This document shows positions 1 through 38,865 of a DNA stretch of 39,859 nucleotides, in pieces (the first letter of the stretch is position 1; each line of letters starts with the position of its first letter). Made by a program: the position numbers and the translations under genes. The stretch spans positions 1-39,859 of the forward strand of contig CAJXLG010000003.1 of NCBI GenBank assembly GCA_913055885.1, read 5' to 3'. This stretch comes from an uncultured Rhodospirillales bacterium. Lineage in GTDB: Bacteria > Pseudomonadota > Alphaproteobacteria > Rhodospirillales > CAJXLG01. The notes beneath the pieces are model-generated. The model had not been told where the DNA came from. It did no database searches and saw only the letters and a list, made by a program, of their open reading frames with translations.

Positions 1-3000
1 CCGGGCGCGTCCAGACAGGCGAAGCGCACCAGCGCCCGGGGCGGTCCGTCCGGGGCGTCGGCCGGCGCGTCGTCGGCCCGGACCACCGTTCCGCCCAGCG
101 CCCGCAGGCGCGCCTCTAGCGCCCCCACCAGCGGGGCATCCCGGGCCTCCGCCGGCACGTCCAGCAGCCAGCGCCCGGCGGCGGCGCTGGCGTGCGGGAC
201 GGGAGGCGGCGCGGCCACGGGCACGGGAGCCACGTGATAGGCGCCGATCCCCGCTTCCGGGGCCACGTCCGGGGGCAGGGGCGGCGTGGTGGGCGGCCAG
301 AAGCGGCGCCGGTCGAACGGATAGCTGGGCAGGGTGGGCGGTGCTTCCGTCTGGTCGCCGGCCACCGCCGTCCAGTCGGGGTCCACGCCCGCCTCGTGCA
401 GGGCGCCGAGGGCCTCGCGCAGGGCGACCGCGTCGCGCCGGTCCGGGCGCAGGGAGGTCACCCGGACGCCGTCGTTGGCGCCCGTGTCGCGGCGGCGCGC
501 CAGGGCCGTGAGCACCCCCTTGGGCCCGATTTCCAGGAAGCGGGGCGGGCCGCGGTCCGCCAGGGCACACAGGGCGTCGTCGAAGGCGACGGGCCGGCGC
601 AGGTGGTCGCGCCAATAGGCCGGCCGCGACAGCCGCCCGGGCGGCGCCATGTCGCCCTCCAGGCAGCAGGCCATGGGCACGGCGGGGTCGGCCAGGGCAA
701 CGCCGGACACGGTGTCCGACCAGGCATCCAGGATCGGGTCCATGAGGGGGGAATGGAAGGCGTGCGCCGTTTCCAGCCGCCGCCAGCGCAGTCCCTCGGC
801 GGCGGCCAGGGCCTCGGCCCGGTCCACGGCGTCCGGATCGCCGGCGATGACGGTCTCGTCCGGCGCGTTCAGGGCGGAAACGGCCAGGTCCGGCGCTTCC
901 GTGGCGGCGATCAGGCGCTCGGCGGTGGCGCGCCCGGCGGTCAGGGCCGTCATGGCGCCCGGCCGGGTGCCCTCGGCCACCAGGCGGCCGCGCACGGCGA
1001 CCAGGCGGGCGGCGTCGGCGACGGACAGGACGCCGGCTGCCGCCGCCGCGGCAAAGGCTCCCAGGCTGTGGCCCGCCACCGCCGCCGGCTTCACGCCCCA
1101 GGCCGCCCACTGGGCCACCAGGGCCATCTGCAGGGCGAACAGGGCGGGCTGGCCGTACCGGCTGTCGGCCAGGCGGTCGGCGTCGCCCAGGACGTCGGGC
1201 AGGGGCCGGTCGAGGAAGGGCGCCAGGTGGTCGCCCACGGCCTCCAGTTCCGCCCGGAACGCGGGCTCGTCGGCCAGCGCCCCCAGCCCCGCCCCGGCGT
1301 ACAGGGCGCCCTGGCCGGAAAACAGGAAGGTCACGCCGCCGCGCCGGGCCGGCATCGCCGGCCCGGCCGCGTGCTCGGCGGCGGCGCGCAGGGCGGCGAC
1401 GGCGGCCGGCCGGTCGTCGGCGACGATGGTCCGGCGCAGCGGCGGATGGGCCCGGTTCAGGGCGGCCGCGCGCGCCACGGCGGCCAGGGGCGGGGCGTCG
1501 GGCCCGTCGTCGGCGAGGGTATCGGCCATTCGGCGCAGCGCCGCCGCCAGGGCGGGGGCCGTCATGGCGCCCACCGGCACCACGTGCGGCCCCGGCGGAT
1601 CGGCGGCCGGCGCGGCCGGCGCGGGGGACGGCCCGGCCTCCAGGATGACGTGGGCGTTGGTGCCGCTGCCGCCCAGGGAGCCGACCCCGGCCATGGGGCG
1701 CTCGCCCGGGGCTTCCAGGGGGGTCGGCCGGGCAGGCAGGCGCAGGGGCACGCGGGGCCAGTCGATGGCCGGGTTGGGGGTGCGCAGGTGCAGGTGCGGC
1801 GGCGCCTCGCCCGCTTCCAGGGTGAGGACCGTCTTGATGAGGCCGGCCATGCCGGCGGCGGATTCCAGGTGGCCGATGTTCGTCTTCACCGAGCCCGCCA
1901 GCGCCGAGCCGCCGTCGTCCGCCAGGACGGCGCCCAGGGCGTGGGCCTCGATGGGGTCGCCCAGGGGCGTGCCCGTGCCGTGGGTCTCCACGAAGGCAAG
2001 GTCGCGTGGCCGCCCCCCGGCCCGCCGCAGGGCATGCCGGACGACGGCTTCCTGGGCCTGGCGGCTGGGGGTGGTGATACCGCTGGACGCGCCGTTCTGG
2101 TTCACCGCCGACCCCCGCACCCGGGCGCGAATGCGGCGCCGGGCCCGTTCCGCGTCGGCGGCGCGCTCGACGACCACGACGCCACAGCCCTCGCCCCGCA
2201 CCATGCCGTCGGCCGCGGCGTCGAAGGCGCGGCAGCGGCCCGTGGGCGAGAGCATGCGCGCCCGGCTGGCCACCAGGGACGAGAAGGGCGACAGGATCAG
2301 GTTCACCCCGCCCACCAGCGCCCGGTCGCAGTCGCCGGCCCGCACGGCCCGGGCCGCCAGGTGCAGGGCCACCAGCGAAGAGGAGCAGGCGGTGTCCACG
2401 GTAAGGGCCGGACCCGTCAGGCCCAGGGTGAACGCCAGGCGCCCGGCGGCGAAATTGAGCGCGTTGCCTGACAGGTAATAGCTGTCCGGCGGCAGGTCGG
2501 GGACCCGCCGGAGCAGGTCGCCGTAGTCGTTGGTGGAGGCGCCCACGAAGACGCCGGTGCGGCTGTCGCCCAACCGGTCGGGTGGCAGGCCCGCGTCTTC
2601 CAGGGCCGCCCACGCCGTCTCCAGGAGCATCCGGTGCTGCGGGTCGAGGCTCAGGGCCTCGCGCGGGCTGAGGCCGAAGAGGGCGGCGTCGAAGCCGTCC
2701 ACCCGGTCCAGGAAGCCGCCCGTGCGGCAGGCGATGTGGTCGGGCCGGCCCGGGTCGGGATGGTACCACGCCTCGGCGTCCCAGCGCTCGGGCGGCACCG
2801 GGCCCACGCCGTCGCCGCCGGCGCGCAGGAAGGCGTGAAACGCGGCGGGCCCTTCCCCGGCGCCGGGAAAGCGGCACCCCATGCCGGTGAGCGCCACCGG
2901 CCCGGCGTCGCCGCCGTCGTCGTCGGCCCCTTCCCCCTCCAGCCCGTCCACGCGCCGCTGCAGCTCCAGGGCAAGCAGCATGGTCTGCTTGTGGGTCAGG

Positions 3001-3038
3001 CCGCGCAGGTAGTCCAGGAACTGCTTTTCGTCAGGCAT
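1..3038 (-). CDS. Type I PKS subunit 3, partial (module 5: docking-KS-AT(malonyl)-start of a probable KR region); 3' end outside the window
   Basis: Not in the ORF track, so translated by hand from ATG 3038: [29 protein letters not shown]...GMGCRFPG...DTACSSS...[12 protein letters not shown]...KTNIGHLESAAG...FSGQG...GHSLG...HAFHS...LPSYPFDRRRFW. GGAG lies upstream and ATGCCTGA overlaps the upstream stop. Confidence 0.93.
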   Translation of the reverse strand, partial: MPDEKQFLDYLRGLTHKQTMLLALELQRRVDGLEGEGADDDGGDAGPVALTGMGCRFPGAGEGPAAFHAFLRAGGDGVGPVPPERWDAEAWYHPDPGRPDHIACRTGGFLDRVDGFDAALFGLSPREALSLDPQHRMLLETAWAALEDAGLPPDRLGDSRTGVFVGASTNDYGDLLRRVPDLPPDSYYLSGNALNFAAGRLAFTLGLTGPALTVDTACSSSLVALHLAARAVRAGDCDRALVGGVNLILSPFSSLVASRARMLSPTGRCRAFDAAADGMVRGEGCGVVVVERAADAERARRRIRARVRGSAVNQNGASSGITTPSRQAQEAVVRHALRRAGGRPRDLAFVETHGTGTPLGDPIEAHALGAVLADDGGSALAGSVKTNIGHLESAAGMAGLIKTVLTLEAGEAPPHLHLRTPNPAIDWPRVPLRLPARPTPLEAPGERPMAGVGSLGGSGTNAHVILEAGPSPAPAAPAADPPGPHVVPVGAMTAPALAAALRRMADTLADDGPDAPPLAAVARAAALNRAHPPLRRTIVADDRPAAVAALRAAAEHAAGPAMPARRGGVTFLFSGQGALYAGAGLGALADEPAFRAELEAVGDHLAPFLDRPLPDVLGDADRLADSRYGQPALFALQMALVAQWAAWGVKPAAVAGHSLGAFAAAAAAGVLSVADAARLVAVRGRLVAEGTRPGAMTALTAGRATAERLIAATEAPDLAVSALNAPDETVIAGDPDAVDRAEALAAAEGLRWRRLETAHAFHSPLMDPILDAWSDTVSGVALADPAVPMACCLEGDMAPPGRLSRPAYWRDHLRRPVAFDDALCALADRGPPRFLEIGPKGVLTALARRRDTGANDGVRVTSLRPDRRDAVALREALGALHEAGVDPDWTAVAGDQTEAPPTLPSYPFDRRRFWPPTTPPLPPDVAPEAGIGAYHVAPVPVAAPPPVPHASAAAGRWLLDVPAEARDAPLVGALEARLRALGGTVVRADDAPADAPDGPPRALVRFACLDAP

Positions 3039-6000
3039 CCCCGTTTTCTCCGTCGTCGGCGGCCGTGTTGTCCACGTCGCCCAACAGCCGGTCGATGGCA
3101 TCGTCGTCCAGGTCCGCCACCCGGGCCGCGAGATCGACGGCCGATTCCCCGTCGGCCGGCGGCGTTTCGGCGTCCGGCCCGGGGCCTGCTTCGTCCCCCG
3201 TGGCCGCCGCATCGGGGAACAGCCGCGTCACCAGATGGGCGGCGAGGCTTTCCGGCGTGGGATACTCGAAGGCGATGCTGGGCGGCAGGTCGAGGCCCAG
3301 GGCGGTCTCCAGCCCCTGGCGCAGGCGTACCGCCATGACGGAATCGAGCCCCATCTGGAAGAAGCCGCGATCGGCCTCCACGGCCTCGGGGCCGGGCAGG
3401 TCCAGCACGTCGGCCACCCGGCGCGCCACGGCCCCGGTCATGGCGTGGGCGCGCGCCGCCGCCGGCAGCGCCGCCAGTTCGCGGGCCAGGGCGCCGTTTT
3501 CGGCCGGCGCGGTGTCCGCCTGATCGGGGCCGGGGGCGTCGCCGTCGCCGGCCCCGCCTTCCATCTCTTCCAGGAACGGGCGCCGCCGCCGGGCCTCCTG
3601 GACGGCGCGGAACGTGGGCCAGTCGAAGCGGCCCGCCGCCGCCCGGTCCACGCCGCGCGCCATCAGGCTGCCCAGGGCGGCCAGGGCGTCGGGCCCGGGA
3701 AGCGGCAGGAAGCCCATCCGCGCGAAGTACGCCGCGGCCGTGTCGTCCACCAGGCCGGCGCCCTGCCACCAGCCCCAGTTCACGGACAGGCCGTGCGGCC
3801 CGCGCGCCCGGCGGGCGGTCATCATGGCGTCCATCGCCGCGTTGGCCGCGGCGTAGGCGCCCTGGCCCTCGGCGCCCCAGAGCGCCCCGCCCGTGGAGAA
3901 GCAGACGAACCAGTCGGGCGGCCGGTGGGCGGTGGCGTCCGCCAACAGCCGGGTGCCCGTCACCTTGGGGCCGGTGGTCGCGGCGATGTCGGCGGCGTCC
4001 AGGTCTTCCAGCCGGGCCGAGCATACCACGCCGGCGGCGTGGAAGATGCCGCGCAGCGGCCCGTCGCCGGCCTCGGCCGTGGCCACCAGGCGGGCCACGT
4101 CATCCGCGCGGGTCACGTCGGCGGCCTCGCACACCACCGTGCAGCCGGCGGCCTCCAGGGCGGCCAGGCGTTGCGCCCCGGCGTCGTCCGGCCGGCCCCG
4201 GCGGCCGGCCAGGACGAGGCGGCGGGCGCCCCGGTCGGCCAGCCATTCGGCCACCGCCAGCCCGATGTCGCCCAGGCCGCCGGTTATGAGCCATGTGCCG
4301 TCGGCGGCGATGGCGGGGCCCGCGTCGGCGTCCGGGGCCGCCGGCATGCGGGCCAGCCGGGGGACGAAGCGGCGGCCGTCGCGCCAGGCTACCTGATCCT
4401 CGCCGTCCCCGGCGGCGATGGTGCGCAGCACGAGGTCGGCCAGGGCCCCGGGATCGAGCGCTTCCGGGGGCAGGTCGGCGAGGCCGCCGCCCGTGTCGGG
4501 CCGTTCCACCATGGCCACGCGGCCCAGCCCCCACAGCGCCGCCTGCAGCGGATCCGGGGTGTCGCCGGCGCGCGGCGCCTGGCCGCCCCGCGTGAACAGC
4601 CACAGGGTGTCGGGGCCGTCGGCCACGAGGTCGCGCACGGCGGCGATTTCCGACTCCACCGCGCCGGCCGGGTCGGCCGGCGCTTCCGGCGGCAGGCGCA
4701 GCACCCGGGCGCCCTCGGCGAAGCCCGGCGCGGCCGCCGCGGCGGCGGGGTCCAGCAGGCGCGCCGAAGCGCCCAGCCGCTCGGCCACGGCGTCGGCCAC
4801 GGGGCCCCGCCCGAGGACGATCCAGGACGGATCTTCGGGCGTGGCGGCTGCCGGGACGCCCGCCTCGCGCCAGACGGTATGGTAGAGGTCGCGGGGCTGG
4901 CGCGTCGGGGGCGGTGTGGCCACCGGGCCGGGCCCGCTGGTGAACCAGTGGCGCTTGTGCTGCCACGCATAGGTCGGCAGGTCCACGCGGCCGGGGCCCG
5001 GGTCGCCCAGGGCCGCCCAGCGCGGAGTCAGCCCGTCCACGTAGAGCCGCCCGGGCACGTTCAGCAGCTGGCGGCGCTCCGGCGCGTCCCGGTTGAGGCA
5101 GCACAGCACCCGGGGCGGGTGGGCGGCGTCCATGGTCTCGGCGCGCACCGCCTCGGTCAGGACCGGGTGCGGCCCCATCTCGACGACGTGCGTCACGCCC
5201 CGGTCCACCAGGCGCGCCACGGCGTCGGCGAAGCGCACCGGGCGGCGCAGGTTGGCCCACCAGTAATCGGCGTCCAGGGGCGGCGCGTCGGGCGCGTCCA
5301 GGGGGCCGCCGACCACGGTGGAGTCCATGGGAAGGCCCGGGGCGCGGGGCTGCAATCCGGCCAGGGCCGTCAGCAGGTGGTCGCGCAGCGGGTCCACCTG
5401 CGGGCCGTGCGAGGCGACGTCCACGTTGACCCGGCGGCAGAAGATGTCCCGCGCCTCGAGCCGCGCGGCCATGGCCTCCAGGGTCCCGGCGTCGCCGGAC
5501 AGGACGGTGGAATGGCGGGCGTTGCTCACGGCGACGGCGACGCGCTCCGCCGCCCCCGGATCGTGGTCGCGGGCGTGGTCGTCGATGGCCCGCGCCGCCG
5601 CCTCCGCGTCCAGCCCCACCAGGAGCATGCCGCCCCGGCCGCTGATGCCGCGCAACAACCGGCTGCGCTGGCAGATCACACGGGCGGCGTCGGCCAGGTC
5701 GAGGGCGCCCGTGACGGTGGCGGCGGCCACCTCGCCCATGCTGTGGCCGACGGCCACGGCCGGGGTGACGCCCAGGTCGCGCAACAGGGCGGCCAGGGCC
5801 ACCTGAAGGGCGAAAAGGGCGGGCTGGATGGTATTCACCGCCTCCATGGGCTCGCCCGCTTCCAGCAGGGCGGCCACGTCGGGCCCGCCGGCCGCGCGGC
5901 AGGCATCGGAGGCCTGGCGCAGGGCATCGCGGAAAACGGGCTCGGTGGCCAGGAGCCGGCGGCCCATGCCCGCCCACTGGCCGCCCTGGCCCGGGAAGAC

Positions 6001-9000
6001 GAAGGCCACGCGGACCGTGGAATCCGGCTTCGCCACGCCCTGGTGGACCGCCGGCTCGCCGTCGGCCGGCGTTTCGCCGGCCGCCCAATGGCGCAGGGCG
6101 GCCGCCGCTTCCGCCCCGGAGCCCGCGGCCACGGCGAGGCGGTGCGGATGATGGGCGCGCCGGCGCGCGGCCTGCAGGGCGATCCGGGTGAAGTGTTCCG
6201 GCGTGGCGTCGGCCACCCGGTCGGCCAGCCGCCGGGCGAGGTCGGCCAGGGCCCGCGGGTCGCGGGCCGACGTTACCAGCAGGGCGCCGTCCGCAGCCGT
6301 ATTCGCCGCCCCGGGATCGGTGTCCTCCTGTTCGGGCGGCTCCTGGACGACCATGTGCGCGTTGGTGCCGCTGAAGCCGAAGGAACTGACGCCGGCCAGG
6401 CGCGGGCGGTCCGCCGGCCACGGGCACGCCCGCGACGCGACGCGTACCGGCAGGGTGTCCCAGGCGACGTGCGGGTTGGGGGTGTGGAAGTGCAGGCTGG
6501 GCGGCACGTGGCCGGCGTTGACCGCCAGCACGGCCTTGGCCAGCCCGGCCAGGCCGGCGGCCCCTTCCAGGTGCCCGAGGTTGGTCTTGACGGAGCCGGT
6601 CAACAGGGGCTGGTCGGGCGGCCGGCCTTCCGCGAAGACGTCGCCCAGGGCCGTCGCCTCGATGGGATCGCCCAGGGGCGTGCCGCTGCCGTGGGCTTCC
6701 ACATAGGCCACGTCCGCCGGGGCCACGTGCGCGTCCGCCAGGGCGGCGCGGATGACCCGTTCCTGGGCGGGGCCGTTGGGCGCCGTCAGGCCGGCCGAGC
6801 GGCCGTCCTGGTTGGTTGCCGACCCGCGCACCACGGCGAGGACCGGATCGCCGTCCGCGCGGGCGTCGGCCAGGCGCTTGAGGGCGACGACCAGGCAGCC
6901 CTCGCCCCGGACGAAGCCGTCGGCGTCGGCGTCGAAGCTGCGGCACCGGCCCTCTTCCGAGAGCATGCGGGAGCGCGCGAAGTTCACCGCCACGCCCGGT
7001 TCCAGCATGACGTTGACGCCGCCGGCCAGGGCCATGTCGCACTCGCCGTCGAGCAGGCTCTTGCGCGCCAGGTGCGTGGCCACGAGGGACGACGAACAGG
7101 CCGTGTCCACCGCCAGGGCCGGCCCCTCCAGCCCCAGGACGTAGGCAATGCGCCCGGCCGCCACCGAGCCCGCGTTGCCGGTGGCGAGGTGCGGATCCCC
7201 GCCCGGGTTGTCGCCCGCCGCCATCTGCAGATGGAGGTAGTCGCTGCCGCAAATGCCGACGAAGACGCCCGTGGGCGTGCCGTCCAGGGCCGTAACGTCC
7301 TGGCCGGCGTCTTCCAGCGCCTCCCAGGCCACTTCCAGCAACAGGCGCTGCTGCGGGTCCATGGCCGCCGCCTCGCGCGGGCTGATGCCGAAGAAGGCGG
7401 CGTCGAAGCCCGCCACGTTGTCCATGAAGCCGCCGTGCCGGGCGTAGGTGTAGCCCGCGCGGTCCGGGTCCGGATCGTAGTAGGCGTCCACGTCCCAGCG
7501 CCCGGGCGGCACTTCCGCCACCCCCTCGACGCCCGCCATCAGGCCCTGCCACAGGCTGTCGCGGTCGTTCAGGCCGCCGGGCAGCCGGCAGGCGAGGCCG
7601 ACCACCGCGATGTCGCGCTCGCCCGACCGGTCGCCCGCGTCCGTTTCGCGGGCGGGGGCGCGGCCGGTCGCCGGGGCGCCCTCGGGCGTCGCCAGTACCC
7701 TGGGCGCCAGGAAGGCGGTCAGGGCCTCGACGGTGGGGTGGTCGAAGGCCAGGGTGGCGGGCAGGGTGATGTCCAGCGCGGCGGCCAGGCGGTTGCGCAG
7801 GTCCACGGCCATCAGGCTGTCCAGGCCCAGGTCGCGCAGGGGCTGGCCGCCGGGGATGGCGGCGTCCGGTTGCAGCCCCAGGGCCGCCACCGCCTCGCGG
7901 CGGATCAGGGCGGCCAGGGCGGCCTCGTCGTCCGGCCGCGCCGGGGCCGTGACGGCCTCCGGCCGGGGCGCGTCGTCGGCCGCCGCCGGCGCCTCGGCCG
8001 CCGGGGCCCGCGCCGGCTGCCGCCGGGCTTCCGCCAGGGGCGCCATGAGGTCGGGCACCGTGCCGGGCGGAAAGGCGGCCAGGAAGCGCGGCCACTCGAC
8101 CGGCAGCACCGCCGTCTGCGCTTCGCCCAGCATCAGGGCGCGGCGCAGCGCCTCCAGGCCGTCGTCCAGGGGCATGGGCCGCATGCCCAGGGCGGCGACG
8201 CGGTTCGCCGCGTCGGGGTCGGCCAGGGTGCCGGCCTCCGCCCACGGCCCCCAGTCCACCGCGAGGCCCGGCAGCCCCAGGCCGTGCCGGTAATGCGCCA
8301 GGGTGTCCAGGGCGGCGTTGGCCGCCGCGTGGTTGGCCTGGCCCGGGCTGCCGAGCAGGGCGGCGCCGGCCGAGAACAGCACGAACAGTTCCACCGGCCG
8401 GTCCAGGCTGAGTCGGTGCAGGGCCCAGGCGGCATCCACCTTGGTGCGCAGCACGGGATCGAAGGTGTCGGCGGTCTGGCTGCCCAGCGGGGCGTCCGCC
8501 AGGGTGCCGGCGGCGTGGACGATGCCGCGCAGCGGCGGCCCCTCGGCGTCGATGCGCTGAACCAGGCTTTCCAGCGCGGCGACGTCCGTGACGTCGAGGT
8601 CCACTTCCTCGACCCGCGCGCCGGCGGCCTCGGCGGCGGCGATGGCCGTCCGGCCGTCGTCGTCGGCCGGGCGGCGCCCGGCCAGGAGCAGCCGGCCGGC
8701 GCCCCGCTCGGCCAGCCACCGGCCCACGTGCGGGCCCAGGCCGCGCCGCCCGCCCGTGACCAGATAGGTGCCGTCGGCGCGCGCGGACGGCTCCCGGGCA
8801 TCCCGCAGGTCCAGGACCAGCCGGCCCACGTGCTGCCCGGCCTGCATCCCGGCCAGGGCCTCGCGCGCCCGGCCCACGGGCCGTGCCGTAACGGGCAGGG
8901 TGGGCAGCGCCCCGGCCGCCACGTCGTGCAGCACCCGGTCGTAGAGGGCGGCCACGGCATCGGGCGCCTCGGCCACCTCGTCCGCTACCATGATGGGGTG

Positions 9001-15000: not shown

Positions 15001-15056
15001 GGCGTAGAGCGCCAGCTTCTGCGGGGACAGGGCCAGCAGGCGGTCCAGGGTCTCGG

Positions 15057-15060
<4 letters not shown>
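3031..15060 (-). CDS. Type I PKS subunit 2, 4009 aa: module 3 KS-AT(mal)-DH-cMT-ER-KR-ACP; module 4 KS-AT(methylmalonyl-like)-KR-ACP
   Basis: Two KS domains with DTACSSS/HGxGT/GH(M/L)E. AT3 [21 protein letters not shown] and [42 protein letters not shown] and [12 protein letters not shown]3 [18 protein letters not shown]4 GQGGQW/GHSMG/VDVASH. KR4 [19 protein letters not shown]. ACPs LGLDSLM and MGLDSVM. Confidence 0.96.
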
Positions 15061-24866
<9,806 letters not shown>

Positions 24867-25067
24867 TCAGGTCCCCCGGCCTGCTTCGGGCCCGGCCTTG
24901 TCCAATTTGCTGCCGGGCACCCGGCCGGCTCACGGGGGGTGCCGCCCGCTGGCGCCACCCCGGAAACGGCTGGTTTCGCCGGCCGTGTACACCACCACTA
25001 GCTGCAGAAATCACGCCTCAAGGACGCACGAAAAAGGTGCCGCTTGCAACGTTGAAGCCCCTTACTC

Positions 25068-25116
25068 TTATGATGCCCCCTACCCCGCCCCTTTTATGAT
25101 GCCCCCTACCCCGCCC
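25068..25116. repeat. 23-bp perfect direct repeat (TTATGATGCCCCCTACCCCGCCC x2, 26-bp period) in the divergent intergenic region
   Basis: Copies at 25068-25090 and 25094-25116. A degenerate partial copy (TGAAGCCCCTTAC) lies just upstream. Confidence 0.9.
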
Positions 25117-25339
25117 TGAGGGGAGGAGCATCGTCTGCGGGCCTTCGATACCTGGCCCCGACCCCGATCGGGGCCGCAATCGGCACGGCGCAGAGCCAAC
25201 ACAGCCTGTCGAGCCCGTGCGAAATCCGGGCTAGGATGGCGGATTGTGGTCCGGGAAGTTCCCAGGGTGCAAGGGGCAGAGTCCGTCGAATGTGACGGAT
25301 CGTTGACGGCCCGGGCCGGACCGGCGTTCCCACGGAGGA

Positions 25340-25367
25340 TTGCACGTCCCGGGTCGTGCCCTACAAT
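25340..25367 (+). promoter_or_regulatory. Putative sigma70 promoter of the FAAL-kinase-PPTase operon
   Basis: TTGCAC (25340-45), N16, TACAAT (25362-67), about 100 nt upstream of ATG 25467. Confidence 0.6.
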
Positions 25368-25397
25368 AATGTGCCGCAATGGCGTGTCCGGATCCCG

Positions 25398-25432
25398 CCG
25401 GCGGACGCGGGCGGGTCCGGCGCGTCCGCCGG
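25398..25432 (+). other. 12-bp-stem hairpin in the predicted 5' UTR of the FAAL gene
   Basis: CCGGCGGACGCG-N11-CGCGTCCGCCGG; no U-tract follows. Confidence 0.45.
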
Positions 25433-25466
25433 GGAGCGGCGGTTATCGCAAGGGGGGAATGGCGCA

Positions 25467-28400
25467 ATGAACGAGGACGGCCCGGCACCATGGCCCGCCG
25501 GGGCGGGCGACCTCAGTGACTGGGTGACGCGCGGGGCGGAAGCCGACCCGGAGGCCCTGGCGCATGCCCTGGTCGGTGCGTCCGGCGATCCGGAACGACG
25601 GTTGACGCGCCTGGCGCTGCGGCGGCGGGCCTGGGGCGTGGCCCGCGCCCTGCGCGAGCGCCTGCCGGCGGGTGAACGGGTTCTTTTGCTGTTTTCCTGT
25701 CCGCTGGAGTTCCTGGCCGGTTTCGTGGGATGCCTGGATGCCGGCCTGATCGCCGTGCCGGCGCCGCCGCCGGAGCCGTCGCGCCTCAAGCGCGCCCTGC
25801 CGCGCCTGGGCGCCATTGTCGAGGACTGCGGCGCGGCCCTCGTCCTGGCGGATACCACCATCGCCGGGCTGGTCACCGGCGGAAGCGCGGCCGACGGCGT
25901 CCTGGGAACGCTGCCGGTGATCGACGTGGCGGACTGCCCGGAATCGGAGACACCGCCCGAGGGCCGCGTGCGGCCTGACGACGTGGCCTACCTTCAGTAC
26001 ACCTCCGGCTCCACCGCGAGCCCGCGCGGGATCATGGTGCGCCGCGCCGCCCTGGCCGACAACCTGCGTTACAATCATGCCCTGTGGCGCTACGGGCCGG
26101 ACAGCCTGGCGGTCAACTGGATGCCCTACTACCACGATTACGGCCTGGTGGAAGGGCTGTTGCAGCCGCTGCACGCCGGCATTCCCGCGCTTCTGTTGTC
26201 GCCCACGGCGTTCCTCCGGGCGCCCGGGCGCTGGCTGCGGGCCATAAGCGCGCACGGCGCCACCCACGCGGCCGCCCCCAATTTCGGCTATGCCCACTGC
26301 GTCGCGCGGGTGTCGGAAGCGGAGATGGCGGATCTGGACCTGACCCCATGGCGGGTTGCCAGCACCGGGGCCGAGATGGTCCGTCCGGCGACCCTGGAGC
26401 GTTTCGCCGCCCGGTTCGCCCCGGCCGGGTTCGACGCGCGGGCGTTCATGCCGTCCTACGGTCTGGCCGAGGCGACCCTGCTGGTGACCGCGGCCCGGAC
26501 GGAAGCGGCCGCGCCGGCCGAGACCCTGCCCTCGGACCTGGCCATGACCGTGGATCGGAGCGCCCTGGCGTCGGGCGAGGCCCGGCCGGTGGCGGAGCCC
26601 GGGGCGGGCCTGCGGCTCGCCTGCTGCGGCCGTCCCGGGCCGGGCACCGAGGTGCGCATCGTCGATCCCGACAGCGGTGCGGTCTGTTCCGACGGCCGCG
26701 TCGGCGAGATCTGGGTGCGCGGGGGCGGCCTGGGCGCCGGCTACTGGGGCCGGCCCGAAGACTCCGCCCGGACCTTCGACGCCCGGCCGGCCGGGGCACC
26801 GACGGACGGGCCGGGCTACCTGCGAACGGGCGATCTGGGATTCATGGTGGACGGCGGCCTCTATGTCTCGGGCCGGCGCAAGGAACTCATCGTGGTGCAC
26901 GGGGTCAATCACGTGCCCCACGACATCGAGGCCACGGCGCGCGCCGCCGTGCCCGCCCTCGCGGAAGCGGACTGTGCCGCTTTCGCCGTCGAGGGCGATG
27001 GCGCGGAACAGGTCGCCCTGGCCGTGGAGGCGGGGCGGGACGTGCCGGATGACGCCCTGCCCGGGATGCGCGAGGCCATCGCCGCCGCCCTGTGGGAGAC
27101 CCACCAGCTCACGCCGGCCCACCTGGTCGTCCTGGGGCGGGGCGGGCTCCCCAAGACCTCGAGCGGCAAGGTCCAGCGAACCCACTGCCGTACCCTGCTG
27201 GAAGGCGGGGGCTTCGAAAAGGTGCGTCGCATCTTCACCGGCGGCGCCGAGGCCGCGCCCGCGGAAGATTCCGCCATCGGGGCGGAGACGGCGGACGCCC
27301 AGCTCGTGACCCACCGGACCGGGGAGGATCGGAACATGGCGGCCCACGACAGCAGCGCCAGCGCCGACGAGCTCATCACGGCCCTGCGCGCCTATGCCGC
27401 CGAGCGTATCAACCCCACCATCATGGACGAGCGGCGCGCCCTGCCGCCGAACGTGGTGCTGGACTTCGGGGCCCTCGGCCTCCTGGGCCTGCGCGTTCCC
27501 CGCGCGCTGCATGGCAAGGAACTCACCTGCGTGGACTTCGCGCGGGTGCTGGAACAGATCGGCGGCATCGACGTCAGCCTGGGGGTCTTCACCATCCTGC
27601 AGAACGGCCTGGGGCTGCCGCCCCTGCTGGGCCATGGCACGCCCGAACAACGCGCCGCCCTGGTGCCCACCCTGGCGGAGGGGCGTGCCCTGGTGTCGTT
27701 CGCCTACACGGAGCAGGGGGCGGGCTCGAACGTCCGCGCCATCGAGGCGGAGGCCCGGCCCGATGCCGAGGGCACACTGCGCCTCACGGGCACCAAGTTC
27801 TGGAGCGGCTCGTCCGCCTGGGCCTCGACCATCCTGGTTTTCGCCCGCGAGGTGGACGCCGCCGGCCGCCCGCTGGGGATTTCCGCCTTCATCACGCGCC
27901 GCGGCATGCCCGGCCTGCGCACCTCGGACGAAGCCCTGACCATGGGCCTGCGGGCGACCATCCAGAACCGCGTGGAACTGGACCGTGTGCCGGTGGGGGC
28001 GGCGGATCGGCTGGGCGCGCCCGGCCAGGGCCTGCAGATCGCCCAGGAGGCCATGAGCTTCACCCGGTTGTGCCTGGCCGCCCTGTGCCTGGGGACGCTG
28101 CGCCGGGTGACCCGGGTCATGCACCGCTTCGCCAGCCGGCGCACCGTCATCACCGGCCCGCTGGAGCGCCATCCCACGATCCAGGCCCGCCTGTCGCACT
28201 GGACGGCGGCGGCCACGGCCCTGGACGCGCTGGTGGCCGAAACGGCGCGGCGGGTGGACCGGGACGGCGACGCCAACCCCCACCTTTATGCCGCCTGCAA
28301 GGCCCTGGCGCCCGAGCTGTTGTGGGGGGCGGCGGACGACGCCATGCAGCTTCTGGGCGGGCGCGGCTACATGGAGCACAACCTGATCGCCATGGTGTTC

Positions 28401-29297
28401 CGCGATGCCCGCGCCATCCGGATTTTCGAGGGGCCGACGGAGAGCATCAACCACCACCTCGGGGCGGCGGTCCTCAACGACCGGGCCGGGCTGGACCGGC
28501 TGCTGCGCCACGACCTCGACGCGCCGGACGCGGCCGACCGGCTGGCGGCCGCCGCCGACGCGGTGGAAGGCATGGACGCGGCGGACGTACCCTGGTCCGA
28601 TGCGGGCGCGTTGCGGGCCCGCCGGGCCCAGGGTCTGGGCGACGTGGCGGCCTGGAGCCTCATGACCGCCTGCCTGGAAGGGGGCGGGGCCGCCGACGGG
28701 GACCGGCCGCGGGCCCTGACCTGGTGCCGGGCGATGCTGGACGAGGCGCGCCGCAGGGCCGCAACGTCAACCCCGGGCGAGGCCGCCGTCCTGGATTCCG
28801 GGGAGCTGGCCGGCCTGGTGGGCGGCTATGCGGCGCGCATCGGCGACGGGAGCTTTGCGTCGGCCGGTGTGGAAACCGGGGTGGAGCCCGAGCTTGCGCC
28901 GGGCGACGCGGCCGCCCCGGCCCCGGCGGCCCCGGTTACCCCGGCGGCGCCGGCGGGCGGGGGCGCCGCCGACGACCTGGAGCAGTGGATGGTGGCCTGG
29001 CTGGCCCGCACGCTCGGCCTGACGGCAGGCACCGTGGCGCCGGACCGGCCCTTCGCCACCTACGGCCTGGACTCGGTCACCGCCTCCATGCTGGCGATGG
29101 ACCTGGAGGGGCACCTGGGCCGCTCCGTGGACGCCACGGCCATCTGGGATTATCCGTCGCCGCGCGCGCTGGCCGCCCATCTGGCGGCGCCGGCCGGCCC
29201 CGGAGCGGCCGCCGACGGGACCGCCGACACCGACGCCGAGTCCGCCGGCGCGGCGGCCGAACTGGATGCCCTGCTCCGCGAGTTCGGGCATGACTGA
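25467..29297 (+). CDS. Fatty acyl-AMP ligase - acyl-CoA dehydrogenase - ACP tridomain loading protein (~1276 aa)
   Basis: FAAL motifs AYLQYTSGSTASPRG, WMPYYHDYGL, PSYGLAEATL followed by a FAAL-type insertion, LRTGDLG, PKTSSGKVQR. ACAD motifs FAYTEQGAGSN, GTKFWS, LGGRGY, IFEGPTE. ACP YGLDSV. Start moved from GTG 25356, which overlaps the promoter, to ATG 25467 after AAGGGGGG. Confidence 0.92.
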   Translation: MNEDGPAPWPAGAGDLSDWVTRGAEADPEALAHALVGASGDPERRLTRLALRRRAWGVARALRERLPAGERVLLLFSCPLEFLAGFVGCLDAGLIAVPAPPPEPSRLKRALPRLGAIVEDCGAALVLADTTIAGLVTGGSAADGVLGTLPVIDVADCPESETPPEGRVRPDDVAYLQYTSGSTASPRGIMVRRAALADNLRYNHALWRYGPDSLAVNWMPYYHDYGLVEGLLQPLHAGIPALLLSPTAFLRAPGRWLRAISAHGATHAAAPNFGYAHCVARVSEAEMADLDLTPWRVASTGAEMVRPATLERFAARFAPAGFDARAFMPSYGLAEATLLVTAARTEAAAPAETLPSDLAMTVDRSALASGEARPVAEPGAGLRLACCGRPGPGTEVRIVDPDSGAVCSDGRVGEIWVRGGGLGAGYWGRPEDSARTFDARPAGAPTDGPGYLRTGDLGFMVDGGLYVSGRRKELIVVHGVNHVPHDIEATARAAVPALAEADCAAFAVEGDGAEQVALAVEAGRDVPDDALPGMREAIAAALWETHQLTPAHLVVLGRGGLPKTSSGKVQRTHCRTLLEGGGFEKVRRIFTGGAEAAPAEDSAIGAETADAQLVTHRTGEDRNMAAHDSSASADELITALRAYAAERINPTIMDERRALPPNVVLDFGALGLLGLRVPRALHGKELTCVDFARVLEQIGGIDVSLGVFTILQNGLGLPPLLGHGTPEQRAALVPTLAEGRALVSFAYTEQGAGSNVRAIEAEARPDAEGTLRLTGTKFWSGSSAWASTILVFAREVDAAGRPLGISAFITRRGMPGLRTSDEALTMGLRATIQNRVELDRVPVGAADRLGAPGQGLQIAQEAMSFTRLCLAALCLGTLRRVTRVMHRFASRRTVITGPLERHPTIQARLSHWTAAATALDALVAETARRVDRDGDANPHLYAACKALAPELLWGAADDAMQLLGGRGYMEHNLIAMVFRDARAIRIFEGPTESINHHLGAAVLNDRAGLDRLLRHDLDAPDAADRLAAAADAVEGMDAADVPWSDAGALRARRAQGLGDVAAWSLMTACLEGGGAADGDRPRALTWCRAMLDEARRRAATSTPGEAAVLDSGELAGLVGGYAARIGDGSFASAGVETGVEPELAPGDAAAPAPAAPVTPAAPAGGGAADDLEQWMVAWLARTLGLTAGTVAPDRPFATYGLDSVTASMLAMDLEGHLGRSVDATAIWDYPSPRALAAHLAAPAGPGAAADGTADTDAESAGAAAELDALLREFGHD
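27323..27338 (+). promoter_or_regulatory. Internal Shine-Dalgarno plus in-frame ATG at the start of the ACAD domain
   Basis: GGAGG (27323-27), 8 nt, ATG (27336), in frame with the FAAL ORF. Confidence 0.5.
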
Positions 29298-30330
29298 CGC
29301 GGAAGGGGGGATCGCCGGGTCCTGGCTCGCCCGCGTTCTGGGGCTGCCGCCGGACGCACTGGCCGGGGTGACGGTCGAGCCCGTGGCGGCGGAGGCGGCC
29401 TTCTGTGGCCGTCTCGCCCGGGTTACCGCCAGCCACGGCCTGCCCGGGCCGGTGGTCGTCAAACGGCCCGCCGCCGACCCGGAAATATACCGCATGATGG
29501 CCGGCATGGGGTTCTACACCCGCGAGCACAGGTTCTACGCCGATCTGGCCGCCGAGGCCGGCGTGGACACGCCCCGCCTGTTGGGCGTGGATGACGCGGA
29601 CGGCGAGGCCCCGGTCCTGGTGCTTGAGGCGTGCGCGGCCGGGCTGCCGGGGGACCAGTTTTCCGGGATCGACGCCCACGACGCCGTCGCCATCGCGCGC
29701 GCCATGGCGGGTTTTCATGCCCGGCTGCGCGAGGACGGCCCGGCGGCGGCCCGGACGGCATGGGTGCCCGGTTTCGACGACGGGCCGGATATGACGGCGT
29801 TCTATGACGCCTGTTGGCCGGACTTCGCGCGGCGCTTCGGCCATTGCCTGCCCGACTGGCTGATGGCGGCGGGGCCCGCCCTGGGGCCCCGGCTGGCGAC
29901 CCTGCGCCGGGGGCTGGCGCGCCCCCCGCTTACGGTCCTCCACGGCGACCTGCGCCTGGACAACCTTCTGCTGCGGCCGGACGGGCCGCCCGTGTTCCTT
30001 GACTGGCAGACGGTCGTCCGGGGTCGGGGCGGCTTCGATCTTGCCTATCTCGTTGCCGGCAACCTGCGCCACCATGACGCGGCCGCCATCGACACCCTGG
30101 TAACGGCCTACAGCACGGCCCTCGGCGAGGCGGGCTGGGAGGCCTACGACGAATCGGCCGTGCGCGACGACGTGCGCCATGGCGTGGCGTTTCTCTGGGG
30201 GCGGACGGTGACGGCTGGCGCGCGGCTGGGTTTCGCCGGCGGGGACCGGCGGGCCCGGTTCGAGGCGGCCCTGGCCCGCTGGTGCGCCGCGGCGGAGGCG
30301 CTGGGCGTGCGCCGCATCCTGGGGGCCTGA
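29290..30330 (+). CDS. Phosphotransferase of the APH/choline/ecdysteroid-kinase-like family (~346 aa)
   Basis: VVVK, REHRFY, LVLE, Brenner-type HGDLRLDN, FLDWQ, DLAY. ATGACTGA overlaps the upstream stop. Confidence 0.88.
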   Translation: MTDAEGGIAGSWLARVLGLPPDALAGVTVEPVAAEAAFCGRLARVTASHGLPGPVVVKRPAADPEIYRMMAGMGFYTREHRFYADLAAEAGVDTPRLLGVDDADGEAPVLVLEACAAGLPGDQFSGIDAHDAVAIARAMAGFHARLREDGPAAARTAWVPGFDDGPDMTAFYDACWPDFARRFGHCLPDWLMAAGPALGPRLATLRRGLARPPLTVLHGDLRLDNLLLRPDGPPVFLDWQTVVRGRGGFDLAYLVAGNLRHHDAAAIDTLVTAYSTALGEAGWEAYDESAVRDDVRHGVAFLWGRTVTAGARLGFAGGDRRARFEAALARWCAAAEALGVRRILGA

Positions 30331-30332
30331 TC

Positions 30333-31097
30333 ATGAAACCGCCGGACGCCGCGGCCGAGGCCGTCGTCTGGGTGTGGGTCATGCCCACCGCCGGCGTTCC
30401 GGACCCGCCGCCGGGCCTTTCGACCCTGCTGGAGCCCGCCGAGCGGGCGCGCGCCGACGCCTTCCACTTCCGGGCGGACGGCCATGCCTATCGCTGTGCC
30501 CACCTCCTGCGCCGCCTGGCGCTCACCCACCGCGTCCCGGAGGTGGCGCCCGGCGCCTGGCGGTTCGTCGCCGACGCCCGGGGGCGGCCGGCGCTGGCCG
30601 GCGACGGCCCCGGCGGCGGGGTTGATGTGAACCTCACCCATACCCGGGGACTCGTCGCCGTGACGGTGGCCGAGGGGGTTGTCGCGGGGGTGGATGCCGA
30701 GGCGCTCGACCGCCGGGGGCTCGAGCCGGCCCTGGCCGACCGCGTCTGCACCCCGGAAGAGGGCGCCCGGCTGGCGGCGCGGGCCGGTGACGGAACGGTC
30801 TGGCGGCGCACCTTTGTGCGCTTCTGGGTGCGCAAGGAGGCGGTGGCCAAGGCCGCGGGCCTGGGGCTGGCGGCCGATCCCGCCACCATCCACGTGGCCG
30901 GGCGCCCGCGTCCCGCCTTCACGGCCGGGGCCGGGGCCTGGTCCCGGGCCGGGCCGTGGGCCCTGTGGGATCTGCCGCCCGAGGCCGGGCACGCGCTTGC
31001 CTTGGCCGCCCGCCCCTGGCCGGCCCGGGCCCGGGTGGTTTACCGCCGGGTTGACGGGCCGGCGCTGGCCCGGCTGGCAACGCGGCCGGTCCGGTGA
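30333..31097 (+). CDS. Sfp-type 4'-phosphopantetheinyl transferase (~254 aa)
   Basis: GRPAL, VNLTHT, GVDAE, FWVRKEAVAKAAGLGL. ATG lies 2 nt after the kinase stop. Confidence 0.92.
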   Translation: MKPPDAAAEAVVWVWVMPTAGVPDPPPGLSTLLEPAERARADAFHFRADGHAYRCAHLLRRLALTHRVPEVAPGAWRFVADARGRPALAGDGPGGGVDVNLTHTRGLVAVTVAEGVVAGVDAEALDRRGLEPALADRVCTPEEGARLAARAGDGTVWRRTFVRFWVRKEAVAKAAGLGLAADPATIHVAGRPRPAFTAGAGAWSRAGPWALWDLPPEAGHALALAARPWPARARVVYRRVDGPALARLATRPVR

Positions 31098-33585: not shown

Positions 33586-33589
33586 GGGC

Positions 33590-36357: not shown

Positions 36358-36395
36358 GGCTCGGGCACTTGTTCCCGTCCGTCGGCGGCCCCCGT

Positions 36396-36401
36396 ATTAT
36401 A
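36396..36401 (-). promoter_or_regulatory. Possible -10 box for the sulfotransferase-carbamoyltransferase operon
   Basis: Perfect TATAAT on the minus strand 38 nt upstream of ATG 36357; no clear -35. Confidence 0.4.
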
Positions 36402-36603
36402 GACACACTGGGAATGGCGCCGTCCATGCGGTCGGCTCTGCCCATCGTGTCGGGCAACGGTGCCGTGCGATCCCTTTTCCGCCCACCAGGGCCCCGGCCA
36501 CGGTCGATCCGTCGAGCAATCGACACGAAACGGACGGCGCCCCGTCCCGGTCAGGGACGAAAGCCTGCGTGGTGACTGAACGCCCGTTTGAACGGAAAAG
36601 GCT

Positions 36604-38785: not shown

Positions 38786-38791
38786 GGCGAC

Positions 38792-38820
38792 AGAATAGCA
38801 GGTCGCGGGCCGCCGGTCAC
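38792..38820 (-). promoter_or_regulatory. Putative leaderless promoter for the aminotransferase operon
   Basis: Minus strand GTGACC-N17-TATTCT with an extended TG, then 6 nt to ATG 38785; no SD. Confidence 0.5.
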
Positions 38821-38829
38821 GGCGGAGGG

Positions 38830-38859
38830 TTGCCGCCGCCCGGGGGCCTCGGTTATCAA
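38830..38859 (+). promoter_or_regulatory. Putative leaderless promoter for the methyltransferase
   Basis: TTGCCG-N18-TATCAA, then 6 nt to ATG 38866; no SD. Confidence 0.4.
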
Positions 38860-38865
38860 GGCTCC

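Follow-up and report, generated by a model that had tools for sequence, protein, structure and literature searches.

The stretch of DNA analysed here (the window, 39,859 nucleotides) is the whole of contig C3 of a 393-contig alphaproteobacterial metagenome-assembled genome (MAG), whose rpoB fragment is 73% identical to that of Azospirillum. Its plus strand carries genes for a loader, a kinase and a 4'-phosphopantetheinyl transferase (PPTase), divergent from three minus-strand cis-AT polyketide synthase (PKS) genes that contain, as assembled, five pairs of KS and AT domains, with C-methyltransferases (cMT) embedded in two of the modules. Pfam and the ORF layout recover all the elements of a preliminary description of this DNA at the coordinates given there, and its arrangement of two divergent coupled operons is borne out: junction overlaps are of 4 to 8 nt, with ATGA between pksA and pksB, and ATGnnTGA both between pksB and pksC and between the loader and the kinase, whose start overlaps the loader stop by 8 nt. 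The ATG of the PPTase lies 2 nt past the kinase stop. The features are as follows.

3..3038, minus: pksC 5' part, KS-AT and KR start of the terminal module (Pfam KS 105-476 and AT 628-945 of a 1070-aa frame)
3031..15060, minus: pksB, 4009 aa, KS-AT-DH-cMT-ER-KR-ACP / KS-AT-KR-ACP (Pfam, motifs)
5077..6003, minus: atypical AT (GHSMG ... VASH) of pksB module 2 (AT alignment)
8236..8772, minus: KR of pksB module 1, with the same Tyr-to-His change as the KR at 15774..16289 (KR alignment)
10540..10857, minus: embedded cMT of pksB module 1 (PF08242, aa 1402-1507, E 9e-21; SAM-binding motif LEVGAGTG)
15057..24866, minus: pksA as assembled, 3269 aa, KS-AT-KR-ACP / KS-AT-cMT-KR-ACP (Pfam)
15774..16289, minus: KR of the pksA cMT module, His for catalytic Tyr (GQANHAAAN; KR alignment)
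16959..17249, minus: embedded cMT of pksA module 2 (PF08242, aa 2540-2636, E 5e-18; motif LEIGGGTAG)
17810..23781, minus: repeat block R, 5,972 nt, C-terminal half of KS1, AT, KR, ACP, KS2, AT (exact matches to the ends of contig C53)
24867..25466: divergent intergenic region between pksA and the loader gene (ORF layout)
25467..29297, plus: tri-domain loader FAAL-ACAD-ACP (Pfam: AMP-binding E 3e-53, three ACAD domains, PP-binding)
29290..30330, plus: EcKL/APH-family small-molecule kinase (PF01636, E 5e-14; PF02958)
30333 (or 30282)..31097, plus: Sfp/HetI-type PPTase (PF01648, E 5e-13)

The pksC frame opens at 3212, with a likely ATG at 3038 that overlaps the pksB stop, and leaves the contig at 3; the contig ends there, so that the window contains no left flank of this gene. 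To the right of ~31.6 kb lie a carbamoyltransferase, TPR proteins and a DegT aminotransferase, which lack counterparts in related clusters and are probably not members of this one.

The Pfam assignments support the earlier view of a cis-AT PKS that is primed with lipid through a FAAL, branches its chain by cMTs and comes with an ACAD-bearing loader, a kinase and a PPTase of its own. Four of the five ATs in the window have HAFH. The exception is the second AT of pksB, the VASH-type AT already reported, and one further AT of the line, outside these five, has GTSMG...FASH. The "probable methyl" formerly proposed for the fourth module is not supported: that module lacks a cMT, and the proposal goes back solely to the VASH-type AT. 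The Cys-His-His residues are kept in every KS examined, eight in total, of which five lie in the window and three on C53. In each of the three genomes whose PKS genes could be fully read (Roseovarius aestuarii, Rhodovibrionaceae A322 and this MAG), His replaces the catalytic Tyr in the KRs of both cMT modules, and the reduction state at these two positions is therefore uncertain.

The loader frame opens at 25356, and the database-called protein of 1276 aa places its start at 25467. The best PDB match of its FAAL part is 7r7g (E 2e-108, FAAL domains), a 572-aa "Polyketide synthase" FAAL chain that we take to be the Ols FAAL; its ACAD part is closest to canonical, SCAD/VLCAD-type enzymes (4n5f, E 4e-39). 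The canonical ACAD catalytic Glu (RIFEGPTE) and the carrier serine (GLDS) are both kept. In a search of 5.8 billion proteins, in which 8000 candidates were scored, the fusion of AMP-binding, ACAD and PP-binding domains occurs in 11 of the 15 protein clusters listed. The FAAL review PMC11837247 contains no passage on FAAL-ACAD-ACP fusions ("dehydrogenase" occurs there once, in a figure abbreviation, and "kinase" 0 times). In the kinase, K66, E87, HGDxRxDN and DWQ are invariant among seven relatives, and the PPTase matches HetI weakly (51 bits, below the cut-off).

Recovery of the left flank, suggested earlier as the way to the release domain, led to contig C134 of the same genome, found with the Roseovarius tail as query (57% identity). 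It overlaps the left end of the window by 75 nt, in frame and with 73 of the 75 positions identical, and carries KR, PP-binding, Sulfotransfer_3 and Esterase domains (Pfam). On sequence grounds, C134 completes the terminal module of pksC as KS-AT-KR-ACP-ST-X-esterase, X being an extra conserved stretch of ~170 aa between the sulfotransferase (ST) and the esterase. By homology the ST stands close to the activating sulfotransferases of CurM and olefin synthase (Ols): it matches 4gbm, "CurM Sulfotransferase" (E 2.3e-78 over residues 30-324), and 4gox (E 8.8e-78), and the PRSGST and PPELHLLP stretches are identical in these matches. The architecture, earlier described as apparently orphan, does have relatives, and this release end changes the predicted end of the product. 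The release hydrolase belongs to PF00756 (esterase-D/antigen-85-like). A structure of the CurM thioesterase (TE) exists in the PDB; a PDB sequence search at E<=0.001 gave no match between it and the hydrolase, and it is absent from the 50 Foldseek matches listed for the hydrolase (model pLDDT 70), which comprise ferulic acid esterases, antigen 85 and S-formylglutathione hydrolases.

The five-module collinear product proposed earlier was read off a collapsed contig. The first 76 nt of C53 are exactly 17885..17810 of the window and its last 77 nt exactly 23781..23705; R is present in a single copy in the bin, yet C53 both enters and leaves it. Since both ends of C53 match both ends of R exactly, the pksA of the window is a repeat-collapsed path A-R-C, which joins the 5' end of a first gene (A) through R to the 3' end of one further along (C). 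R has an anomalous G-ending codon usage; a G3 skew of at least 0.35 is found in 11 of 2119 windows along the genome, every one of them inside pksA. The true line most likely runs A-R-B-R-C and has nine KS, like that of the isolate Rhodovibrionaceae bacterium A322 (G002). The C53 proteins are same-order orthologues of the A322 genes located between two 98.2%-identical copies of 6.6 kb, in what is an isolate genome. Two MAGs, G003 and G004, show this contig pattern too (2205/751/385 aa and 2277/799/392 aa), with the break at the same position. The assembly graph and the relatives with enough data (4 of 4) indicate nine KS in this genome, and the most likely order is: loader; [KS-AT-KR-ACP-KS-AT]-DH-ER-KR-ACP; KS-AT-DH-ER-KR-ACP; KS-ACP (no AT); [KS-AT-KR-ACP-KS-AT]-cMT-KR-ACP; pksB; pksC.

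We think that the window represents the core of a gene cluster, real and intact, that directs the synthesis of a polyketide lipid primed with a fatty acid and that belongs to a rare alphaproteobacterial family (probability about 0.7). The FAAL would adenylate a fatty acid and load it onto the loader's own ACP, where the in-cis ACAD, given its canonical catalytic Glu, would most likely produce a 2-enoyl-ACP. The cis-AT line, in which HAFH-type ATs predominate, would then add malonyl units, with methyl branches presumably supplied by the two SAM-dependent cMTs. The ST of the terminal module, being of the CurM/Ols activating type, is predicted to sulfate the final beta-hydroxyl; the serine hydrolase would free the chain and, by analogy with CurM/Ols, decarboxylative sulfate elimination may leave a terminal alkene. 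This last step is the weakest, because the hydrolase comes from another family than the CurM/Ols TE. Conserved accessories are the P450, a protein of SnoaL-like type, a type II thioesterase (TEII) and the EcKL-type kinase; the last may phosphorylate a hydroxyl, either on the product or on an intermediate. The likely product is a long, methyl-branched polyol lipid built on a fatty-acid primer, which would leave the line as a terminal alkene or in sulfated form.

Release could be something other than alkene formation: hydrolysis to a beta-sulfated acid, or acyl transfer to an acceptor alcohol to give a sulfated, perhaps phosphorylated, lipid ester. We regard this as a possible outcome, if not the expected one. 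It would agree with the PF00756 hydrolase and its GxSMGG / D / H triad, with nearest folds that include the antigen 85 mycolyltransferases, and with the presence of the additional X stretch. PF00756 occurs in none of ten other ST-bearing PKS tails sampled, three of which have Abhydrolase_1, the family expected for CurM/Ols; moreover, a passage of PMC11730487 expects sulfated metabolites from an ST that lacks a proper TE. On the other hand, the ST is ~50% identical over its whole length to two characterised activating STs, and the order KR-ACP-ST-hydrolase is that of CurM/Ols. It is also conceivable, though unlikely, that the five-module A-R-C path is the true order and that C53 comes from a co-assembled close strain with a longer version. 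Roseovarius aestuarii indeed has exactly five KS, in a genuine form without segment B (genes of 3172, 3923 and 2121 aa) that differs from our nine-KS model; the assembler gave A-R-C as a single contig, and the two mismatches in the C3/C134 overlap hint at strain heterogeneity. However, any genome holding C53 needs R on both of its sides, whereas the bin holds only one R, and A322, G003 and G004 all have the long form. Besides, pksA itself looks composite: its residues 1-360 are 66% identical to the FAAL-adjacent PKS of A322 versus 55% to the 3449-aa paralogue of that PKS, and its C-terminus is nearest to the 3449-aa type, that of the later gene.

Two further readings appear much less plausible. 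The kinase and the ACAD might act together in the manner of LvaA/LvaC or ACAD10/11, the kinase phosphorylating a 4-hydroxyacyl thioester and the ACAD eliminating the phosphate to give an enoyl starter. Translational coupling of kinase and loader in the four genomes in which the two genes could be seen side by side (this MAG and three relatives), a conserved P450 that could supply the hydroxyl, and a weak PDB match of the kinase, to 3dxp (E 0.033), whose deposited name is "putative acyl-CoA dehydrogenase", would fit such a pair. We consider it very improbable: according to a passage of PMC12440821, a catalytic Asp together with an HCMR motif defines the ACAD10/11/LvaC type, whereas all ten fused loaders examined have the canonical Glu in R[IV]FEGPTE and none has HCMR, and the best ACAD matches are SCAD/VLCAD-type. 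That the cluster is decayed or silent, and without product, is hardly credible. This copy is indeed known from a MAG only, and one might take the KRs with His for Tyr, and the module without an AT, as signs of decay. Nevertheless, decay by frameshift, a possibility raised in the preliminary description, was not seen: the PKS frames are unbroken, with 0 frameshifts and 0 stops in ~8,300 PKS codons of the window as well as in C53 and C134, and the catalytic motifs are intact. The odd features are kept in orthologues at only 45-57% identity, which points to purifying selection on them.

One of the closest known systems is Ols of Synechococcus/Picosynechococcus PCC 7002 (FAAL-ACP-KS-AT-KR-ACP-ST-TE), whose release mechanism, together with that of CurM, is described in a passage of PMC11730487. 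Ols shares the FAAL priming with a fatty acid onto a cis ACP and the KS-AT-KR-ACP-ST-hydrolase end; however, it has one module versus five (Roseovarius) or nine (here), and its TE is of Abhydrolase_1 type, whereas here a PF00756 hydrolase is preceded by the extra ~170-aa domain. Also unlike Ols, the present system has an ACAD inserted in the loader, two cMTs, and modules that are fully reducing or lack an AT; an EcKL kinase, a P450 and a SnoaL-like protein accompany it, and its host is alphaproteobacterial. The curacin A PKS resembles it in being a multi-module cis-AT system with embedded cMTs and an activating ST past the last ACP of its terminal module, CurM (ACP-ST-TE), but the present cluster lacks an HMG beta-branching cassette, an NRPS module and a GNAT loader, and the hydrolase family differs. 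A likeness to myxobacterial and cyanobacterial PKSs had been noted before; the domain logic does resemble theirs, but the host is an alphaproteobacterium. ACP-dependent ACAD-like desaturases, in which an ACAD flavoenzyme stands beside a FAAL and a carrier protein and is expected to desaturate the carrier-bound acyl chain, as here, occur in lipopeptide pathways. Unlike those, the ACAD of our loader is fused between FAAL and ACP in one polypeptide. On the polyketide side, TcsD of FK506 is likewise an ACP-dependent acyl-CoA-dehydrogenase-like desaturase, according to the abstract of bioRxiv 10.1101/736256.

No characterised counterpart of the cluster was found in the papers covered or among database names, as the preliminary description had supposed, and no product names for the four syntenic clusters described below appear in the source databases or the literature searched. 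Taken as loader, kinase, P450, SnoaL-like protein, TEII and ST-X-esterase together, the cluster is present in 4 of 185,579 species genomes and on one metagenome contig. The full ST-X-esterase tail is found at 4 of 23 confirmed loci in the 185,579 genomes and at 1 of 14 loci in the metagenome collection, and kinase relatives of at least 44% identity are present only in the same four genomes. The relatives are Roseovarius aestuarii G21610-S1, Rhodovibrionaceae bacterium A322, a Rhodovibrionaceae MAG and a Pseudomonadota MAG. They share with the present cluster the PKS gene order, the loader (48-55%), the kinase (44-56%) and the ST-X-esterase end (43-57%), and all four keep the P450, the SnoaL-like protein and the TEII (52-61% identity). 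Loader and kinase are adjacent in all three relatives with both genes on the locus, the kinase being seen only in part in the Rhodovibrionaceae MAG (L107). Across its full length PksB shares 54.6% identity with its Roseovarius counterpart, and it shares 48.3% with a 4064-aa protein of A322. The P450 adjoins the kinase in the relatives, whereas here it sits on C134, beyond the PKS.

The cluster is a FAAL-primed, sulfotransferase-terminated polyketide synthase (PKS) without a characterised counterpart in the literature, as the preliminary description had supposed; we call it uncharacterised because no paper on the cluster or on its product was found in the published literature (supplementary files aside). 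A 2025 review of FAALs (PMC11837247) discusses neither ACAD fusions nor kinases. The PKS genes of the window, with domains from Pfam, are:

24866 to 15057, minus strand: pksA, 3269 aa, KS-AT-KR-ACP / KS-AT-cMT-KR-ACP
15060 to 3031, minus strand: pksB, 4009 aa, KS-AT-DH-cMT-ER-KR-ACP / KS-AT-KR-ACP
leaving the window at its left end past KS-AT, minus strand: pksC

Neighbouring cluster genes overlap by 4-8 nt or stand 2 nt apart, which bears out the two divergent, coupled operons first described, and the at least five cis-AT modules are likewise found by Pfam on the three minus-strand genes, with KS and AT motifs intact. Cys-His-His is kept in all eight KS examined and the active-site Ser in all six ATs, the ACP serines are present, the cMTs carry SAM motifs, and DH and ER motifs are in place; this is the constitution of a cis-AT modular type I PKS, the one exception being a KS-ACP protein without AT on C53, another contig of the same genome. 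Decay by frameshift, against which the proposal had been staked beforehand, is absent, with no frameshift found in the cluster genes. Four of the five window ATs have the motif HAFH, which we take to be malonyl-type by the AT motif-to-substrate rule, and the fifth has VASH; the C53 AT reads GTSMG...FASH. By the typing rules that we assume for KRs, W-type domains occur in the three DH-less modules and LDD in the reducing ones. In both cMT modules the KR (15774-16289 and 8236-8772, minus strand) reads GQANHAAAN, with His at the usual position of the catalytic Tyr, and this change is common to the three genomes compared (this MAG, Roseovarius aestuarii G21610-S1 and the isolate Rhodovibrionaceae A322); the DH and ER motifs of the pksB module with such a KR are intact.

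We think that pksA is most likely a repeat-collapsed hybrid and that the assembly line of this genome has nine KS, because of the way in which C53 ends, the arrangement in Rhodovibrionaceae A322, the types of the two ends of pksA and the contigs of two related MAGs. Three further PKS KS domains of the genome lie on C53, in the order ...DH-ER-KR-ACP / KS-AT-DH-ER-KR-ACP / KS-ACP without AT / KS..., with two unusual features:

L020 (contig C53) 3704-10327, aa ~590-909: AT with GTSMG (versus GHSxG) and FASH, the A322 orthologue having FASH as well
L020 (contig C53) 10327-12582: stand-alone KS-ACP, 751 aa, KS triad intact, ACP motif GMSS

The KS-ACP protein keeps remnants of the KS-AT and post-AT linkers, without an AT between them, and counterparts of 751-799 aa are conserved in three related genomes. 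C53 opens with 76 nt that recur exactly at window 17885..17810 and closes with 77 nt that recur exactly at window 23781..23705; these places are the two ends of a block R of 5,972 nt (pksA aa ~362-2352). Because both ends of C53 match those of R, C53 leaves the end of R and re-enters its start, and the resulting graph (5' part of pksA, R, C53, R, 3' part of pksA) needs two copies of R. In A322, scaffold C7 holds the loader, the kinase, a P450 and the divergent PKS, and overlaps scaffold C1 by 6017 identical nt; two 6.6-kb PKS copies of 98.2% identity (C7:91993-98580 and C1:19283-25870) belong there to one assembly line, the repeat stretch recurring 19 kb further on, and this line, with nine distinct KS, closes with KS-AT-KR-ACP-ST-esterase in 2351 aa (ST, sulfotransferase domain). 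The proteins of C53 find their best A322 matches in order: the C-terminus of the first PKS (43%), a 2241-aa protein (45%), a 774-aa KS-ACP (53%) and the N-terminus of a 3449-aa protein (59%). The N-terminus of pksA is closest to the FAAL-adjacent PKS of A322 (66%, versus 55% to the 3449-aa type) and its C-terminus is of the 3449-aa type. The contigs of the related MAGs G003 and G004, with frames of 2205/751/385 aa and 2277/799/392 aa, are broken at the same place. A five-KS haplotype like that of Roseovarius may co-exist in the population, and pksA as assembled is a fully open, plausible 3269-aa gene; that such a MAG gene can be a repeat-collapsed hybrid is a caution for genome mining. If pksA is collapsed, any collinear product prediction made from it is off by four modules, and on the C53 graph and the relatives the five-module collinear product first proposed gives way to nine KS as the most likely number.

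Block R has a second peculiarity, a sharp switch of synonymous codons to G-ending ones (window 17810-23781, minus strand, pksA aa ~362-2258). The third-position G-C skew is +0.4 to +0.5 in R against a genome mean of -0.13, GCG makes up 84% of GCG+GCC in R against 34% outside, and the corresponding figures are 63% against 24% for GGG and 88% against 43% for ACG; a G3 skew of 0.35 is reached in 11 of 2119 genome windows, all 11 in pksA. The shift begins at the R boundary and stops about 100 codons ahead of the R end. The orthologous stretches of Roseovarius and A322, at about 50-70% amino-acid identity, are shifted likewise, and the shift is therefore not due to a chimeric assembly or to recent transfer. 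A contig chimera with a foreign organism is also contradicted by the exact C53 joins at both ends, and a recent horizontal transfer of R by amino-acid identities inside R (~50-70%) that are no higher than outside. Among the readings tried none explains the bias; that three lineages with no more than 50-60% amino-acid identity between them keep it across one ~6-kb region would speak for selection on the nucleic acid itself, perhaps through recombination or mRNA properties of the repeat.

The release domain that was sought on the left flank is found on contig C134 of the same genome, as KR-ACP-ST-X-esterase. The loader has its nearest full-length relative (54% identity) in Roseovarius aestuarii, whose PKS genes encode 3172, 3923 and 2121 aa, the last being KS-AT-KR-ACP-Sulfotransfer_3-Esterase; compared with the window's own genome, this tail matches C134 at 57% identity. 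No exact suffix/prefix overlap joins the ends of the window with any contig, and the link to C134 is an imperfect 75-nt overlap of its start with the left end of the window, 73 positions being identical, in frame. The C134 frame reads:

154-326: KR
461-525: PP-binding
578-792: Sulfotransfer_3
thereafter: C-terminal hydrolase, PF00756 'Putative esterase' in Pfam

Downstream follow a SnoaL-like protein, a type II thioesterase and a P450, and the order KR-ACP then ST is the same in Roseovarius and A322. The ST matches the CurM sulfotransferase, 4gbm, at E 2.3e-78, and also 4gox, at E 8.8e-78; SSPRSGSTLLRVMLAGH, PPELHLLP and DKSP align identically, and we take these stretches to include the loop that binds PAPS and the catalytic Glu and His (ELH). 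The tail thus shares with the CurM/Ols off-loading module the KR-ACP-ST order and the homology of the ST, but the decarboxylating thioesterase of CurM/Ols type is absent from it and PF00756 stands there instead. The GxSMGG serine, CGDxD aspartate and RHD histidine of the esterase are kept in all three sequences, and its AlphaFold model (five-sequence alignment, mean pLDDT 70, pTM 0.59) has ferulic acid esterases, antigen 85 and S-formylglutathione hydrolases as its nearest neighbours among the 50 Foldseek matches listed. Between ST and esterase lies X, a conserved stretch of ~170 residues. In ten other ST-bearing PKS tails, sampled from 19 partial matches, the ST is followed by Abhydrolase_1 (3/10: two cyanobacteria and one Pseudomonadota MAG), Condensation (6/10) or PF00975 (1/10), and by PF00756 in none; the C134 tail, with PF00756, thus differs from the sampled cyanobacterial ones, with Abhydrolase_1. 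The tails in which a CurM-like ST precedes a C-terminal Condensation domain, with no hydrolase (L205, L206, L208, L209, L213, L214), come from Planctomycetota, Verrucomicrobiales, Bacteroidales, Williamsia, Arhodomonas and an Exilibacterium MAG.

The starting end of the pathway is encoded on the other strand:

plus strand: loader, FAAL-ACAD-ACP (Pfam), 1276-1313 aa
plus strand: APH/EcKL kinase, PF01636 and PF02958 (Pfam)
plus strand: ACPS-family PPTase, PF01648

The loader proposed in the preliminary description is upheld in each of its parts. The best 15 PDB matches of its adenylation domain are all FAALs (7r7g, 3kxw, FadD23, FadD32 and FadD28 among them; E 2e-108 to 8e-64), the NCBIfam model 'fatty-acid--AMP ligase' matches at E 1.7e-119 and 400 bits, under its 775-bit cut-off, and the carrier domain has the motif YGLDSV with its Ser, so that a FAAL-type adenylation domain and a cognate carrier, as needed for FAAL-ACP starter loading, stand together. 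The ACAD part matches PF02771, PF02770 and PF00441 and has its catalytic Glu in RIFEGPTE (loader aa ~1023-1030), a motif shared by all ten fused loaders compared, as in a canonical alpha,beta acyl-CoA/ACP dehydrogenase. The kinase, also correctly recognised as APH-like, carries every catalytic motif of the EcKL/APH small-molecule kinases (N-lobe Lys/Glu, HxDxxxxN, DxQ), K66, E87, H226-G-D228, N233 and D246-W-Q248 being invariant in seven sequences; its structural neighbours in the protein Atlas are all APH/EcKL with generic labels, and it remotely resembles 3dxp (E 0.033). A class V lanthionine kinase, LxmK, is discounted by 33 bits against an NCBIfam cut-off of 315. The hallmarks of the ACAD10/11-LvaA/LvaC type, according to PMC12440821, are a catalytic Asp together with an HCMR motif; the later idea that the kinase and the ACAD are such a phospho-elimination pair fails, with HCMR in none of ten fused loaders and Glu in all ten. 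In the PPTase, PF01648 covers aa 136-231 (E 5e-13), the HetI model reaches 51 of the 370 bits set as its cut-off, and Pfam detects no N-terminal lobe.

By homology, the FAAL would load a fatty acid onto the cis ACP, the ACAD with its canonical Glu would, as we infer, give a 2-enoyl starter, malonyl-type ATs would extend the chain and the two cMTs would add methyls. The predicted outputs are a beta-OH, two fully reduced units and one unit from the AT-less KS-ACP (modules 1-4), then a beta-OH, an alpha-methyl with OH or keto, a fully reduced alpha-methyl, a beta-OH and a final beta-OH (modules 5-9). The ST, of activating type by homology, would sulfate this final hydroxyl, and the chain may then shed CO2 and sulfate on release, following Ols/CurM, whose sulfate-activated, decarboxylative olefin mechanism is described in PMC11730487. 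A terminal alkene by decarboxylation and sulfate loss is the least secure step of the scheme, because the hydrolase family differs from that of CurM/Ols; the CurM-like ST speaks for it, and its main rival is release as a sulfated acid or by acyl transfer. The joint reading, to which we give a probability of about one in five, is that the family makes an envelope or signalling lipid of a new class by PKS chemistry not yet described, in which the ST is coupled to an antigen-85/esterase-D-type domain (for acyl transfer or a non-CurM elimination), the EcKL kinase adds or exploits a phosphate, the Tyr-to-His KRs are functional and specialised, and, as a separate matter, the codon bias results from selection on nucleic acid. 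To our knowledge, sulfate-activated off-loading to a terminal alkene comes from very few PKSs, the curacin PKS and the olefin synthases of cyanobacteria. A family from proteobacteria that has the ST but another hydrolase fold would show whether decarboxylative release depends on a CurM-type TE, and could supply new parts for alkenes or sulfated lipids.

Of the 23 confirmed loci from 185,579 species genomes, 4 have the complete ST-X-esterase tail (Roseovarius aestuarii, Rhodovibrionaceae A322, a Rhodovibrionaceae MAG and a Pseudomonadota MAG), as does 1 of 14 loci in the metagenome collection (L216). Kinase relatives of at least 44% identity are confined to the same four genomes, the remaining scanned loci having at most 35%; the Roseovarius kinase was missed by the kinase genome scan and by insensitive word-indexed protein searches and found in other comparisons. 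The P450, the SnoaL-like protein and the type II thioesterase are present in all four at 52-61% identity. The cultured R. aestuarii and A322 put the family within experimental reach.

As to the host, the window (39,859 nt) makes up contig C3 in full, and the assembly to which it belongs (2.96 Mb, 393 contigs) is estimated to be 88.6% complete and 3.0% contaminated, and GC along the window is 0.69-0.79. The sole rpoB fragment of the genome has at most 73% identity to Azospirillum and 69-71% to Rhodospirillaceae/Acetobacteraceae MAGs; on these identities the host is a deep Rhodospirillales-like alphaproteobacterium, and an actinomycete, a myxobacterium or a cyanobacterium is ruled out. The right part of the window holds other genes:

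31630-39456, minus strand: NodU-like carbamoyltransferase, two TPR proteins, a 345-aa ORF without annotation, a DegT/EryC1 aminotransferase and a 233-aa ORF

The genes right of ~31.6 kb have no counterparts in the related clusters and are therefore placed outside the cluster, probably as a separate glycan or envelope locus.

A loader with FAAL, ACAD and ACP in one polypeptide is a compact way of starting a polyketide from an unsaturated fatty acid. In a search of 5.8 billion proteins with 8000 candidates scored, fusions of AMP-binding, ACAD and PP-binding domains proved rare, being found in 11 of the 15 protein clusters listed, including the window's own; one is also found in Burkholderia sp. 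FERM BP-3421. The presence of the three domains in other fusions suggests that the unsaturating loader is a reusable module. In metagenomic proteins (P0011-P0014, P0008), FAAL-ACAD-ACP is joined to a class I/II aminotransferase (1605-1620 aa) or to a luciferase-like monooxygenase (1669 aa).
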